Source: a virus
Direction: 5' to 3' (one strand)
UHGV virus genome: UHGV-0387053
Length of the DNA: 23,009 nucleotides
In this document: positions 3,457-8,403 of the stretch, one piece after another
Numbering within the stretch: position 1 is the first letter of the stretch
How the letters are laid out: the number at the start of each line of letters is the position of its first letter
Notes under the pieces: model-generated
The model's database searches: none
What the model was told of the DNA's origin: nothing
The model's input: the letters and a program-made list of their open reading frames with translations, nothing else
Made by a program: the position numbers and the translations under genes

Positions 3457-4922
3457 CAGATACAGCGTTATCTCCTGAAGAGCAGTTGATCGAGGATATT
3501 GCAGGGTTCACTCACGATCCGCTTGGCTATGCCCTCTATGCGTTCCCGTGGGGGGAAGAGGGGACTGAACTGGCACATGCCACCGGCCCACGTCAGTGGC
3601 AGGCTGATGCGTTCCGAGAGATACGTGATCACCTGCAGAATCCAGAGACGCGCTATCAGCCGCTTATGCTGGCACGCGCTTCTGGTCACGGTATTGGTAA
3701 ATCCGCATTCATCTCAATGCTGATCAACTGGGGCATGTCCACTTGCGAGGATTGTAAGGTCGTGGTGACCGCCAACACCGACAACCAGCTACGAACGAAG
3801 ACCTGGCCGGAAATTATCAAGTGGTCGAACCTTGCTATCACGAAAGACTGGTTTACCTGTACCGCTACCGCGATGTACAGCAATGATCCTGGACACGACA
3901 AGCGGTGGCGAGCTGACGCAATACCCTGGTCTGAGCACAACACTGAGGCATTCGCCGGACTACACAACGAGCGCAAACGCATCATCGTGGTATTCGATGA
4001 AGCGTCGAACATTGCGGATCTGGTGTGGGAAGTTGCCGAGGGTGCGCTAACGGACGAAGACACTGAGATTATCTGGGTGGCGTTCGGAAACCCGACGCGT
4101 AATACCGGACGTTTCCGCGAATGTTTCCGCAAATATAAACACCGCTGGAAAACTGCGCAGATTGACAGCCGGACGGTGGAAGGCACCAACAAACAGCAGT
4201 TGCAGAAATGGGTTGATGACTACGGGGAAGACAGCGACTTCGTTAAAATCCGTGTGCGCGGCATATTCCCTGATGCATCTGAATTGCAGTTTATCCCTAC
4301 CGGTCTTACTGACGAGGCAATGAAACGGGTGGTAACTGCTGCGCAGGTGGCACATGCTCCGGTGATAATCGGCGTTGACCCTGCATACTCCGGTGTTGAT
4401 GACGCGGTGATATACCTGCGGCAGGGGCTGCACAGTAAGGTGCTGTGGACCGGCAACAAGACCACTGACGATCTGATTATGGCAAAGCGTATCGCTGACT
4501 TTGAAGACCAGTATCAGGCTGACGCGGTGTTCATCGACTTCGGTTACGGTACCGGGCTGAAGTCAATCGGTGACGGTTGGGGGCGCACATGGCAACTTGT
4601 TCCGTTCGGTGGCGCGTCTACTGACCCGCAGATGCTCAACAAGCGTGGGGAGATGTTCAACTCATGCAAGACATGGCTGAGGCTGGGCGGCATGCTGGAT
4701 GACCAGGAAACTGCAGACGACCTGTCGGCGGCAGAGTACAAAGTTCGCGTGGACGGTAAAATCGTTATCGAACCGAAGGAAGATATCAAAGAACGACTTG
4801 GGCGTTCACCTGGTAAAGGCGATGCGCTACTGCTGACGTTTGCGTTCCCGGTAGCCAAGAAAACTAATGACCCACGGCAGCAGCAGGGCAGGGCTATAAC
4901 AGACTATGACCCATTTGAATGA
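3453..4922 (+). CDS. Terminase large subunit (ATPase/nuclease)
   Basis: 489 aa; GTG start overlaps the small-subunit stop. Walker A-like GHGIGKS and Walker B-like IIVVFDEAS are visible; size and position are typical. Confidence 0.85.
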   Translation: MTDTALSPEEQLIEDIAGFTHDPLGYALYAFPWGEEGTELAHATGPRQWQADAFREIRDHLQNPETRYQPLMLARASGHGIGKSAFISMLINWGMSTCEDCKVVVTANTDNQLRTKTWPEIIKWSNLAITKDWFTCTATAMYSNDPGHDKRWRADAIPWSEHNTEAFAGLHNERKRIIVVFDEASNIADLVWEVAEGALTDEDTEIIWVAFGNPTRNTGRFRECFRKYKHRWKTAQIDSRTVEGTNKQQLQKWVDDYGEDSDFVKIRVRGIFPDASELQFIPTGLTDEAMKRVVTAAQVAHAPVIIGVDPAYSGVDDAVIYLRQGLHSKVLWTGNKTTDDLIMAKRIADFEDQYQADAVFIDFGYGTGLKSIGDGWGRTWQLVPFGGASTDPQMLNKRGEMFNSCKTWLRLGGMLDDQETADDLSAAEYKVRVDGKIVIEPKEDIKERLGRSPGKGDALLLTFAFPVAKKTNDPRQQQGRAITDYDPFE

Positions 4923-4925
4923 TTT

Positions 4926-5774
4926 TTACTTTTGTGTTTTTGATTTTCTTTGATAGGTGGAATTTAAACCACCATTTATATTTACTAGAGGATTGTTCAA
5001 TAATGTACTGATTTCTGGATTGTTAATTCCAGTAACGCCAAATTTCTTTACGGACTCATTAAGGTCTTGTAATGATTTTAGACCTACAAACCCATTAGCA
5101 ATTGTATTATTTGTTGCCAAAGGAATGTTTTCCTTATAGGACTCATATTCGTTTTTTAAATTTTTGTGAGCTTTTTCTAGATTTTCTAGTTTAGATGTTG
5201 TTTCATCAATAACCTTAGATAATTCTAAAATACGAGCTTGTGCTGCGCGCAGTTCTGTCTCCCTCTCTTTCAATTCAGATGTGAGTTGTCCCATTCTGTC
5301 TTTTGAAAGAATTATTTCCTCTTTCATGTCTTGAATGTTTTTTTCAGCGCCTGTTTTTACTTTTTCGTAAGTAATGTCTTTTTTAGCCAGCAATCTCTGT
5401 AGCCGTGTTTCACGTTGTATTTTTCTTGCCTTCCGGTGGTTTTCGATTGAGTCATTATTATCAAGAGGTTTTGCTTGCCATACGTTAATGATATTGTTTA
5501 CCCATGGTAATAGGCAGCAGATAGTAATTACAGATAAGCATGGATAAAACATAACAGTTTTCCATGTGCTGTTATCTGAGATGTATGAAATTTTATCTAT
5601 TATATTTGATTTGCTAAAAAACAGATAAAGAAGTGATTTCCAGTTGAAGGCGCACCAGGACATAACAAAAGCACCAAGCACAGGGTTTTTGGCTCTATGC
5701 ACGGCAGTATTGGCAGTAGATAAAAACAGCTCTTTGAACGATTCGAACATACTAATTACCTTAAAGTTTTTCAT
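4926..5774 (-). CDS. AT-rich cargo gene: hypothetical membrane protein with two predicted TM helices, a central coiled coil and an Asn-rich C-terminus
   Basis: Minus-strand ATG at 5774 with AAAGG 7 nt upstream; the longer track ORF to 6032 is rejected because it crosses the terminator and tRNA. Hydrophobic segments PVLGAFVMSWCAFNWKSLLYLFF and VMFYPCLSVITICCLLPWV; heptad-like charged region KERETELRAAQARILELSKVIDETTSKLENLEKAH. Hand counts of sample lines give about 30% GC versus about 55% in flanking phage genes. Convergent with terminase, 3 bp from its stop. Confidence 0.7.
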   Translation of the reverse strand: MKNFKVISMFESFKELFLSTANTAVHRAKNPVLGAFVMSWCAFNWKSLLYLFFSKSNIIDKISYISDNSTWKTVMFYPCLSVITICCLLPWVNNIINVWQAKPLDNNDSIENHRKARKIQRETRLQRLLAKKDITYEKVKTGAEKNIQDMKEEIILSKDRMGQLTSELKERETELRAAQARILELSKVIDETTSKLENLEKAHKNLKNEYESYKENIPLATNNTIANGFVGLKSLQDLNESVKKFGVTGINNPEISTLLNNPLVNINGGLNSTYQRKSKTQK

Positions 5775-5809
5775 GATTATACCTTTAAGGTAATTTGTGG
5801 TCATCAGGC

Positions 5810-5835
5810 AAAAAAAATGCCCGGACGAACCGGGC
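5810..5835 (-). terminator. Intrinsic terminator for minus-strand transcription, downstream of the tRNA
   Basis: Plus strand reads AAAAAAAA-tgc-CCGG-acgaa-CCGGGC, so the minus-strand RNA is GCCCGG-uucgu-CCGGGC followed by a run of eight U. Confidence 0.6.
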
Positions 5836-5998
5836 GAACTGGAAGCAATGAGTTCTGCCTTCCGTGGCTGTACGGGTTTACAGCATGAAGTCATCGCAAT
5901 GGCGTCCTGCTGTAAAAAGGGCGGTGATAGTCCTTCAAGGGAAACCATCACCGCCAAGCACCTGGAACTTCTGGCATCACGGTCCTTAGGCGTGATTC

Positions 5999-6075
5999 TG
6001 GCGTGGCATGAAGGATTCGAACCTCCGACCAACCGCTTAGAAGGCGGTTGCTCTGTCCAACTGAGCTAATGCCAC
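5999..6075 (-). tRNA. tRNA-Arg (anticodon UCU)
   Basis: Minus-strand sequence GTGGCATTAGCTCAGTTGGACAGAGCAACCGCCTTCTAAGCGGTTGGTCGGAGGTTCGAATCCTTCATGCCACGCCA folds by hand into a cloverleaf: 7-bp acceptor stem, D arm GCTC/GAGC, anticodon stem ACCGC/GCGGT with loop CTTCTAA (U33, anticodon TCT, A37), T arm GGAGG-TTCGAAT-CCTTC, discriminator G and CCA end. Confidence 0.85.
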
Positions 6076-6502
6076 AACGCTGAGAGCACTTAGCCTGTTA
6101 AGGCGCCACACTTTGTCGCGGCTCCATAAATGCTCTCATCGTTGTACCCTCGTCTCTTCCGAGGCGTCACACCGAATCGCCGGGATGGTGAATCCCCGTG
6201 CGCGGAATAAAACCGCTCGACTTGCACATTCCGGCTACCTGGTTCGTTTGCCCGAGCAAGGGAGGGTGCCCCTTAAACATATCCAGACCGCTATCGGCGC
6301 ATGTGCCATACGCCGTACTGCTCAAAATAAAAGCTCACTCCACCTGTTCAATTTAACGACAAGCCAGTCAGGTTAATAACCGGAATGAACTCTTTGCTTA
6401 CCTTAAAGGTAATAATTCGTGCGTTAAATGTCAACTATCTACGATAAATAAATCATATGTGGTTAAATTGGTAATAATCTAATTGCGTACGGAGTCATTG
6501 AT

Positions 6503-6709
6503 ATGTGCATGGGTAGCTCACCATCAGTGCCTGCAACACCAGAAGTTCAGGCAGCACCACAGGAGCAGGATGCCGCTGTTGTTGATGCCCGCGACGAAGA
6601 AACACGTCGCCGTCGCGCTGCTGCTGGTCGTAGTTCTACGCTGCTTACCGGTTCTCAGGGCGACACATCAACCGCTAATACCAGCGGTAAAACGCTACTT
6701 GGTCAGTAA
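6503..6709 (+). CDS. Small virion protein, T7 gp7.3-like
   Basis: 68 aa, GGAG upstream. PEVQAAPQEQDAAVVDARDEETRRRRAAAGRSS resembles, from memory, T7 gp7.3 (...EVPQAAAQIVDVPEKE...ESGRKKARAGGKK...); it lies directly upstream of the portal gene as in T7. Confidence 0.6.
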   Translation: MCMGSSPSVPATPEVQAAPQEQDAAVVDARDEETRRRRAAAGRSSTLLTGSQGDTSTANTSGKTLLGQ

Positions 6710-6723
6710 CCGGAGTCATTGAA

Positions 6724-8403
6724 ATGGCGGAAACAACTAAAGAGCGATTGAACAAACAGTTCGCACAACTTGAAAGCGAGCGTCAGTCGTTCGAGCCGCA
6801 CTGGCGCGAGTTGAGTGATTACATCAACCCGCGTGGTTCCCGCTTTCTGACTTCTGAGGTCAACCGTAACGATCGACGCAATACACGCATTATTGATTCG
6901 ACCGGGACTATGGCGGCGCGCACTCTCGCCAGCGGCATGATGTCAGGCATCACAAGCCCCGCGCGTCCGTGGTTTCGCCTGGCTACGCCAGATCCTGAAA
7001 TGATGGATTATGGCCCTGTTAAGTTGTGGCTTGAGGCGGTGCAGAACCGCATGAACGATATGTTCAATAAGTCGAATCTCTATCAGTCTCTGCCGCAGTT
7101 ATACGGAAGCCTCGGCACATACAGCACTGGTGCAATGGCAGTGCTGGAGGATGACGAGGACATCATTCGCACAATGCCATTCCCGATAGGCAGTTACTAC
7201 CTGGCTAACTCACCTCGTGGCAGTGTGGACACCTGTTTTCGCAAGTTCTCTATGACTGTTCGTCAGCTTGTTCAGGAGTTCGGGCTAAATAACGTCAGCG
7301 AATCCGTAAAAAGCATGTGGGAAAGCGGCACCTACGAGAAGTGGATTGAAGTGATGCATTCGGTTTACCCGAACATTGACCGCGATACATCGAAGCTGGA
7401 TAGCAAGAACAAGCCATTCAAATCGGTTTATTACGAGGTTGGTGGCGATAACGACAAGTTGTTGCGTGAGTCCGGATTCGATGAGTTTCCAATTATGGCT
7501 CCGCGCTGGGAAGTTAACGGCGAAGATGTTTATGGATCATCATGCCCGGGTATGCTGGCGCTTGGACCTGTTAAGGCATTGCAGCTTCTCCAGAAGCGCA
7601 AGTCGCAGTTGATTGATAAAGCCACCAATCCGCCGATGGTTGCTCCGACTTCCCTCAAGAATCAGCGCGCCTCCCTTCTTCCTGGCGACATCACGTATAT
7701 CGATCAGATTACTGGTCAGGATGGTTTCAGGCCTGCTTATCTGGTTAACCCCAGTACAGCAGATCTGGTAGCAGACATTCAGGACACTCGCCAAATTATT
7801 AACAGCGCCTACTTTGTCGATCTGTTCATGATGTTGCAGAACATCAATACCCGCTCGATGCCTGTTGAAGCGGTGATCGAAATGAAAGAAGAAAAACTTC
7901 TGATGTTGGGGCCGGTTCTGGAGCGTCTGAACGACGAATGTCTTAATCCTCTCATTGACCGCGCTTTCTCGATGATGGTGCGTAAAAACATGCTGCCGCC
8001 ACCGCCTGACGCGATGGAAGGTATGCCCCTGAAGGTCGAATACATTTCCGTCATGGCTCAGGCGCAGAAGTCTATCGGCCTGTCCAGTCTGGCGTCTACG
8101 GTCAACTTCATTGGTCAACTTGCGCAAGCGAAACCAGAAGCTCTCGACAAACTCAACGTTGATCAGGCGATCGATGCATTCGCTGATATGTCCGGAGTGT
8201 CTCCAACCGTCATTGTTCCGCAGGAACAGGTTGAGCAGGCTCGCCAGCAACGGGCACAGCAACAACAGCAGCAACAAATGATGGCGATGGGGATGGCGGC
8301 GGCACAGGGGGCCAAGACGCTAAGCGAAGCTAAAACTTCGGATCCGAGTGTGTTGTCAGCTATGGCGAATGCAGTTAGTGGTCAGGGTGGGCAATCACAA
8401 TGA
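6724..8403 (+). CDS. Portal (head-tail connector) protein, T7 gp8-like
   Basis: 559 aa. C-terminal QQRAQQQQQQQMMAMGMAAAQGAK matches my memory of the T7 gp8 C-terminus (QQKMAQQSMQMGMDNGAAALAQGMAAQ); size and position are consistent. Confidence 0.85.
   Translation: MAETTKERLNKQFAQLESERQSFEPHWRELSDYINPRGSRFLTSEVNRNDRRNTRIIDSTGTMAARTLASGMMSGITSPARPWFRLATPDPEMMDYGPVKLWLEAVQNRMNDMFNKSNLYQSLPQLYGSLGTYSTGAMAVLEDDEDIIRTMPFPIGSYYLANSPRGSVDTCFRKFSMTVRQLVQEFGLNNVSESVKSMWESGTYEKWIEVMHSVYPNIDRDTSKLDSKNKPFKSVYYEVGGDNDKLLRESGFDEFPIMAPRWEVNGEDVYGSSCPGMLALGPVKALQLLQKRKSQLIDKATNPPMVAPTSLKNQRASLLPGDITYIDQITGQDGFRPAYLVNPSTADLVADIQDTRQIINSAYFVDLFMMLQNINTRSMPVEAVIEMKEEKLLMLGPVLERLNDECLNPLIDRAFSMMVRKNMLPPPPDAMEGMPLKVEYISVMAQAQKSIGLSSLASTVNFIGQLAQAKPEALDKLNVDQAIDAFADMSGVSPTVIVPQEQVEQARQQRAQQQQQQQMMAMGMAAAQGAKTLSEAKTSDPSVLSAMANAVSGQGGQSQ

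Follow-up and report, generated by a model that had tools for sequence, protein, structure and literature searches.

The gap between the tRNA gene and the virion genes of the virus genome UHGV-0387053, at positions 6076-6500, is very likely not spacer but a member of a family of structured RNAs, accompanied by a promoter and an operator. The stretch of 23,009 nucleotides (nt), referred to here as the window, is a phiV10/epsilon15-like (Uetakevirus) prophage of E. coli. The sequence at 5780-6520 is 97-99% identical to phiV10, to TL-2011b and to many E. coli chromosomes. A reading made previously from the letters of the DNA (hereafter the sequence-only reading) had described a non-coding gap, GC-rich on its left side and AT-rich on its right, and both its coordinates and its composition agree with ours: measured in 100-nt windows, the GC fraction is 0.53-0.58 over 6050-6350 and 0.30-0.34 over 6350-6500. 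The coordinates of all features are collected in Table 1.

Structure of the RNA

The structure of the RNA core was examined in two alignments of its homologues. Alignment A1 consists of 39 diverse copies in the sense of the minus strand, and its helices were defined by inspection together with an all-against-all scan of the columns. Alignment A2 is a model-based alignment of 77 distinct sequences, which was fitted to the structure and somewhat favours it. In A1, 98.1% of the cells in the helices are paired compared to 90.1% in shuffled alignments, and none of the 500 shuffles was as good. Controls with slid partner strands gave only 27-46% paired cells. Twelve pairs of A1 have changed on both sides and there are 78 compensatory cells. 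In A2, 98.4% of the cells are paired and 190 are compensatory, 11 pairs have changed on both sides, and again none of 500 shuffles was as good. These compensatory changes show four helices, called P1, P2, P4 and P5, and in addition a pseudoknot, PK2.

A further pseudoknot, PK1, is possible according to the structural model. The pattern used for sequence retrieval contained both strands of PK1, so its invariance is given by construction. The arm P2a varies between members, and its CU-rich motif is found in 52 of the 62 representative loci and is predicted to be unpaired in 47. The core is followed by the long hairpin P6, which is present in most members and absent in phage P1; the arms of P6 covary across loci and its variable apex ranges from 30 to more than 100 nt. 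In one IMG/VR contig (L121) the P6 apex holds a tRNA-like insert with a clear T-arm (GAAAGGUUCGAUUCCUUUC), in which ARAGORN calls no tRNA.

The minus strand is taken as the RNA strand because G-U pairs are abundant in this sense (in A2, 42 sequences have GU at pair 11-27 and 21 at pair 171-185) and would turn into A-C mismatches if the plus strand were the one that folds. RNAalifold calculated -28.0 kcal/mol for the minus strand and -18.7 kcal/mol for the plus strand. Furthermore, all 46 of the 46 neighbouring tRNAs within 400 nt are co-oriented with the RNA.

A covariance model of the core (R1) was built from 39 diverse homologues. As the near-identical phiV10 copy is one of them, the score of 140.8 bits for the window copy is partly circular. 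With the model, a full-length match of 123-167 bits was obtained in 96 of 96 sources.

Search for known RNA families

We searched the gap against Rfam 15, which comprises 4227 models, a scan that the sequence-only reading had recommended. No match was found in 6076-6500 at the gathering threshold or at E-values up to 10, nor on the element in five related loci at E-values up to 1. The only other Rfam matches are the tRNA and, elsewhere in other loci, C4, isrK and int-alpA. As a separate observation, isrK and the C4 antisense RNA with its a1/b1 targets are found in the antirepressor region of mEp460 (4851-5039) and of locus L157 (5792-5980), and these are unrelated to the RNA described here. 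An exact-sequence full-text search returned nothing. Literature searches on put and HK639, on structured phage RNAs, on the P1 ban operon and on DicF precursors gave no description of the RNA, with key older papers lying outside these searches, so that an earlier mention is possible. The RNA family thus appears to be undescribed.

Several resemblances to known elements were considered and dropped. The motif GGAAGAG is shared with HK639 putL and is absent in HK022. Similarities noticed by eye to an ERIC repeat (GTGAATCCCC), to the RfaH ops site (GGTAGC), to 5S rRNA and to the ykkC riboswitch are too short or out of register. A boxA-like UGCUCU in an arm of P6 is base-paired and was dismissed. 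The position between the terminase and portal genes is suggestive of the phi29 pRNA, but the family is also found in early-left leaders and in phage P1.

It is very improbable that the gap holds nothing specific, that is, an ordinary tRNA leader or a decayed tRNA or gene remnant next to a promoter region. A degenerate tRNA remnant had been one guess of the sequence-only reading, a tRNA does adjoin the element, and epsilon15 has lost the element. However, the element is conserved without any adjacent tRNA in 107 of 153 loci, its helices hold the 190 compensatory cells of A2, and long invariant segments are kept across phages that share nothing else. There is also no tRNA-like fold: ARAGORN and the Rfam tRNA model call only the intact tRNA-Arg, in line with the earlier statement that the GC-rich half has no recognisable tRNA fold and at odds with the idea of a degenerate tRNA remnant, the fold being unrelated to a cloverleaf. 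The suggestion of a small RNA holds in so far as the GC-rich half does contain a non-coding RNA, but this RNA is not a simple one, with a pseudoknotted core of about 180 nt and a hairpin of 70 nt.

Coding potential

The mechanical open reading frames (ORFs) in the gap are one of 87 amino acids (aa) on the plus strand (6113-6376) and two of 52 aa and 45 aa on the minus strand. Among the 62 diverse homologues, each frame is open in 16 at most. The lengths of these homologues modulo 3 are evenly split (23/20/19), meaning that insertions and deletions disregard the frame. Pfam gave no match and PHROGs gave a single, weak one of 21 residues (phrog_6855, E-value 0.0014). The absence of a protein gene, as claimed by the sequence-only reading, is borne out by these results.

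A small protein-coding gene, for example the plus-strand 87-aa ORF, or a signal in single-stranded DNA would be a barely credible explanation of the conservation. Apart from the phrog_6855 match it could draw on phage records in which ORFs such as mEp460_037 are annotated across the element. However, besides the lack of a conserved frame and of a Pfam match, the plus strand is antisense to all flanking transcription, and the G-U pattern indicates that it is the minus strand which folds, as RNA. As far as sequence comparison can tell, the present data contradict a coding reading, and some phage records would then mis-annotate the RNA as hypothetical proteins.

Distribution and genomic contexts

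The sequence at 6072-6316 is found at 70-83% identity in unrelated phages. A comparison with related sequences, as had been proposed for the gap, shows that the conservation of the GC-rich part exceeds chance by far. Lambdoid carriers are mEp460, cdtI, 2H10, Ayreon and Stx2c and Stx2a phages. Further carriers are P1, P7, D6, SJ46 and RCS47 as well as Klebsiella, Enterobacter and Salmonella phages. There are 590 matching plasmid records, mostly non-mobilizable, with P1-like matches. Among 5426 complete E. coli genomes, the core (6143-6323) is found in 1840 (34%) at 2471 places, and none of the 24 matches listed has an annotation under the core. A scan with an exact pattern added 22 enterobacterial genomes and at least 120 IMG/VR contigs. 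A pseudoknotted RNA with long invariant segments is unannotated in model phages such as P1, P7 and the Stx2a/Stx2c phages and in about a third of complete E. coli genomes, and it is well suited to Rfam curation, structure determination and simple genetics in P1 or phiV10. No copy of the core was found in K-12, whose prophages CPS-53 and Qin were examined.

A genome usually carries a single copy of the RNA, the matches lying at one place per record, and the rightward operon has none. One IMG/VR contig (L048) has two copies on the same strand (3995-4160 and 4802-4965). They are separated by about 640 nt, into which a membrane-protein gene of the opposite strand has been inserted, and each copy is followed by a gene on the opposite strand. 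The region behind the core thus looks like a hot spot for insertions.

The lambdoid copies share the strand of their neighbours: they are flanked by the 3' end of the gene for a CI-like S24 repressor on one side and by the first early-left gene on the other, and begin 6-55 nt past the early-left promoter. The order in mEp460 is cI stop, terminator, two operators with the promoter, the RNA, the terminator-like module T1 and a YfdP-like gene. The OL operator motif between the cI terminator and the RNA also occurs at OR. No N-like ORF was seen in these lambdoid phages, in which no formal search for N was made. Across the family, a promoter-like site is found 6-96 nt upstream of the P1 helix in most loci, several of them with a -10 hexamer ending 6-7 nt before it.

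The other contexts are not early-left leaders. In phage P1 the RNA follows trnI by 10 nt and precedes ban by about 100 nt, 2.3 kb into the C1-controlled ban operon, in which a dicF-like region has been annotated and two further tRNAs occur. In Uetakeviruses the RNA forms part of a stand-alone unit, and in SopranoGao it comes after the late lysis genes.

The copy of epsilon15 (L005, 2432-2542) is a hybrid, in which a loop motif of 13 nt common to both parts, UUCCCUUGAUGCU, joins the first ~60 nt of the core to the 3' half of T1. P6, the tRNA and the remainder of the core have been lost, apparently by a recombinational deletion. Just beside this hybrid is the 'RNaseIII' feature published for epsilon15.

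Promoter, operator and terminators

The promoter at 6434-6406 is the only good sigma-70 candidate in the AT-rich half, and it points leftward. Its layout, TTGACA and TACCTT with a 17-nt spacer, is also found in epsilon15 and in many loci of the Uetakevirus type, and transcription would start near 6399. The palindrome TTACCTTTAAGGTAA, which is the predicted operator, has eight matches with up to three mismatches in the window compared to 0.37 expected. Its counterpart in epsilon15 is TTACCTAAAAGGTAA, annotated there as 'repressor, lysogeny' and located beside an IHF site. Because the -10 hexamer lies inside a palindrome that matches the epsilon15 site, the one clear promoter of the gap, which is leftward, is probably repressor-controlled.

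The sequence-only reading had expected the promoter of the virion module in the AT-rich half, and regulator binding sites in the gap. There is indeed a promoter, but it is directed away from the virion module, and the predicted operator is a good candidate for a regulator binding site. The strand of the element had been missed, as had its extent, since the unit continues to about position 5810. On the minus strand the order of the unit is promoter/operator, leader, core, P6, tRNA-Arg, T1 and T2. Part of what would be called the promoter region upstream of the Uetakevirus virion genes is accordingly a leftward, operator-controlled operon of non-coding RNA, as predicted from these signals. The leader motif GUCGUUAAAU recurs upstream of dicF in the Qin prophage of E. 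coli K-12.

No comparable promoter that would serve the virion genes in the rightward direction was found by the promoter scan. Across Uetakeviruses, the 60 nt that precede the gp3-like gene (6440-6500, plus strand) are 82-86% identical, and a weak extended -10 candidate, TGgTAATAA, near 6468-6477 on the plus strand is the sole candidate for these genes. The next leftward gene has its own promoter on the minus strand (5748-5804; ATGACC, 17 nt, TATAAT), overlapped by a second copy of the operator at 5779-5793. As the -10 hexamer ends 1 nt before the ATG at 5774, the gene probably starts at the ATG at 5750. Its product belongs to phrog_4780, of unknown function, with the PHROG match starting at residue 9, and has no Pfam match.

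Table 1. Features of the non-coding unit and its surroundings in the window, with positions on the whole stretch
Feature	Position	Strand	Remarks
-35 hexamer TTGACA	6429-6434	minus	read from the minus strand
-10 hexamer TACCTT	6406-6411	minus	17-nt spacer
Operator, perfect palindrome TTACCTTTAAGGTAA	6398-6412		predicted; overlaps the -10 hexamer
5' leader, ~75 nt, with motif GUCGUUAAAU	6324-6399	minus	conserved among Uetakeviruses
Structured RNA core	6143-6323	minus	model R1 140.8 bits (partly circular), E 1e-44; single copy in the window
P1	6315-6311 with 6299-6295	minus	A1 columns 9-13/25-29; pair 13-25: GC 22, AU 15
PK1 (proposed)	GCACAU 6306-6301 with AUGUGC 6229-6224	minus	invariant (by construction)
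P2	6291-6284 with 6241-6234	minus	A1 columns 33-40/93-100; pair 39-94: CG 27, UA 12
P2a	variable arm enclosed by P2	minus	CU-rich loop
P4	6196-6193 with 6185-6182	minus	A1 columns 148-151/159-162; pair 149-161: CG 30, GC 8
PK2	CACC 6190-6187 with GGUG 6173-6170	minus	pair 154-174: CG 35, AU 4
P5	6164-6148	minus	loop GAAGAGA; A1 columns 181-185/194-198
P6, long hairpin CAACGAUGAGAGCA...UGCUCUCAGCGUUG	6075-6144	minus	variable apex; predicted fold -35.8 kcal/mol
tRNA-Arg(UCU)	5999-6075	minus	ARAGORN; Rfam tRNA 70.9 bits; predicted to be co-transcribed with the RNA
T1, DicF-like module GGCGGUGAUGG..(loop UCCCUUG)..CUAUCACCGCC, then CUUUUUACAG	5911-5978 (hairpin 5955-5920)	minus	terminator scan
T2, strong intrinsic terminator GCCCGGUUCGUCCGGGC, then AUUUUUUUU	5810-5835 (hairpin 5835-5819)	minus	end of the non-coding unit
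Leftward gene	end near 5750-5774	minus	
Terminase genes	left of the gap	plus	
68-aa ORF, homologue of epsilon15 gp3 / phrog_831	6503-6709		next gene after the gap
Portal gene	6724-8403		after the gp3 homologue

The T1 module and DicF

The T1 module has the layout GGCGGU, a loop with UCCCUUG, ACCGCC and then CUUUUUACA. It was detected in 48 of the 62 representative loci, in lambdoid as well as podovirus contexts, 115-830 nt downstream of the core, and the interval may include a whole tRNA or inserted genes. Downstream of the P1 and SopranoGao copies no T1 was found.

T1 of mEp460 (TGCTTTGGCGGTACCAGTTTGTAC) and dicF of K-12 (ACGTTTGGCGGTATCAGTTTTAC) are homologous in sequence and position, with a hairpin and a U-tract, and the window copy of T1 has diverged more from dicF than the mEp460 copy. 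In addition, the spacer that follows P6 in the cdtI and Stx2c phages shares 89% identity with the 123 nt that precede dicF in K-12. Judged by these similarities, T1 is a DicF-like module, a positional and sequence homologue of K-12 dicF, rather than a generic terminator. The Rfam DicF model has no match in the window region or in the related loci, including the annotated dicF-like region of P1, and because it misses these copies we call T1 DicF-like only.

The K-12 Qin prophage (L160, 2700-2880) carries the leader motif CUGUCGUUAAAU and the 3' end of P6, GGUUGUGG, upstream of dicF, without the core. This region looks like a derivative of the unit in which the structured RNA has been lost.

The longest common string of the P2a loop and the T1 loop has a mean length of 6.1 nt within the same locus and 5.3 nt across loci. 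A common string of 13 nt is confined to one subgroup, so that P2a and T1 are not generally coupled beyond the CU-rich motif.

Possible functions of the RNA

The most likely mechanism, which we put forward tentatively and as a reasoned guess, is that of a processed, stable RNA which is made early and acts in trans. The contexts of the family are the lambdoid early-left promoter, the operator-covered promoter of Uetakeviruses and the C1-controlled ban operon of P1. All three are repressor-controlled, and therefore the RNA is probably made early in lytic growth. The unit would be silent in the lysogen and fire on infection or induction, giving a non-coding polycistron as its primary transcript. 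As the last base of P6 is base 1 of the tRNA-Arg, a cut by RNase P at the 5' end of the tRNA would free the RNA at the base of P6. The remaining processing could be done by RNase III or RNase E, as it is for DicF in dicBF. The RNA may then act on a conserved host component via its invariant junctions and the exposed CU-rich loop of P2a, in which UCCUUG resembles an anti-Shine-Dalgarno sequence. The RNA, the co-transcribed tRNA and the DicF-like small RNA would jointly reprogramme the host early in lytic growth.

Several observations point to an action in trans. In the window and in other Uetakevirus loci the unit is closed by strong terminators, and a separate promoter, itself covered by an operator, serves the next gene. 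The copies in SopranoGao and P1 lie after lysis genes and deep in the ban operon, respectively. Moreover, the neighbours of the RNA include others that act in trans (tRNAs and the DicF-like module), natural sites of processing lie on its flanks, the CU-rich P2a loop is found in 52 of 62 copies, and the processing of DicF offers a precedent.

Other observations weigh against this mechanism. Epsilon15 has lost most of the RNA together with the tRNA, so the RNA is dispensable for the growth of that phage, and the epsilon15 repressor site, on which the operator assignment draws, is a bioinformatic annotation of another group. The invariance of PK1, GGUAGCCGGAAUGUGC and UGGCACAUG is partly forced by the retrieval pattern. 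In lambdoid phages the RNA occupies the exact position of nutL or putL with no N-like gene seen, and T1 stands between the RNA and the first early-left gene, an arrangement which fits an antiterminator acting in cis at least as well.

Such a leader, working by processive antitermination or against Rho in the manner of HK022 put or HK639 putL, is the main rival, although a less likely explanation. The nascent RNA would bind the RNA polymerase that transcribes it and let it pass T1, T2 and Rho-dependent stops, securing the synthesis of the untranslated tRNA, the DicF-like RNA and the early-left genes. The lambdoid position between the repressor and the first early-left gene, so close to the promoter, is the place of nutL and putL, and the phages concerned have YfdP/YfdQ-type genes there and no N-like ORF that we saw. 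A terminator-like T1 hairpin follows in 48 of 62 loci. In mEp460 the RNA is downstream of an early promoter and upstream of terminators, as put is, and in most loci a promoter is found within 6-96 nt. Long untranslated stretches and tRNAs also follow the RNA, which is the situation in which rrn-type antitermination is used. Furthermore, antiterminator RNAs of differing sequence are known, and HK639 has an annotated putL-like RNA of 126 nt.

Model R1 has no match in the HK022 loci or in the whole HK639 genome, and the RNA is therefore not homologous to put, from which it also differs in size and in fold. A cis-acting role further has to account for the usual single copy per genome, apart from the viral contig with two, and its absence from the rightward operon, for a Uetakevirus unit that ends at two terminators before a gene with its own promoter, and for the copies far from Pban in P1 and after the late lysis genes in SopranoGao. 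In addition, K-12 Qin expresses dicB past the DicF terminator without the RNA.

A leader that senses a ligand or a factor, and like a riboswitch tunes the passage of T1 into the early genes, is improbable. The pseudoknotted core with its many invariant unpaired nucleotides is aptamer-like and is located upstream of a conserved terminator-like hairpin. However, the distance of 115-830 nt between core and T1 is highly variable, which makes an attenuator of the riboswitch type less likely: a tRNA or genes can lie in between and there is no overlapping expression platform. The P1 and SopranoGao copies have no T1 downstream, and there is no match to a riboswitch in Rfam.

A broader proposal, which is possible if speculative, is that the RNA represents a new class among the early RNAs of phages, one which binds to a core machine of the host. 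It might be a second and far larger type of antiterminator that modifies the polymerase, or a decoy or sponge for a host factor, present in P1, in Shiga-toxin phages and in prophages of a third of E. coli strains and deployed with the tRNA and the DicF-like small RNA as a non-coding 'host-takeover operon'. If the RNA acts in trans, it would be an added player in early host takeover, beside DicF and the phage tRNAs. If it modifies the polymerase, it would explain how early terminators are read through in lambdoid phages that apparently have neither N nor put.

Comparison with known phage RNAs

The C4 or P4 CI antisense RNAs of P1, P7 and P4 differ from the gap RNA in locus, fold and size (77-87 nt); C4 is present elsewhere in mEp460, and the Rfam C4 model has no match on the element. 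RNAs of the C4 type are regulatory RNAs of phages which RNase P releases from longer transcripts. In T4, the species 1 and 2 RNAs are stable, tRNA-linked phage RNAs of unknown function. Like these and like ROOL and GOLLD, the gap RNA is a structured orphan which is co-located and co-oriented with phage tRNA genes. ROOL and GOLLD are orphan structured RNAs near tRNAs in prophages of Firmicutes (PMC12286853). The gap RNA is much smaller than these two, belongs to enterobacterial hosts, has no Rfam match and is mostly found in loci free of tRNAs (107 of 153).

RNase III and RNase E release DicF from the transcript of dicBF, which is polycistronic (PMC10448788). The dicBF operon of Qin resembles the unit described here in being a repressor-controlled, early-left-like transcript that carries non-coding RNAs. 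Unlike DicF, the gap RNA is a separate module upstream of the DicF-like hairpin, and its core is absent from K-12 Qin.

With put and putL the gap RNA has in common that it is a structured RNA right after a repressor-controlled lambdoid early-left promoter, with terminators downstream (PMC9378689). put has a length of about 70 nt and two stem-loops and HK639 putL measures 126 nt, whereas the gap RNA has a pseudoknotted core of 180 nt and a hairpin of 70 nt. Unlike put, the gap RNA family also occurs outside early-left leaders, namely in the ban operon of P1 and in stand-alone, terminated units of podoviruses.
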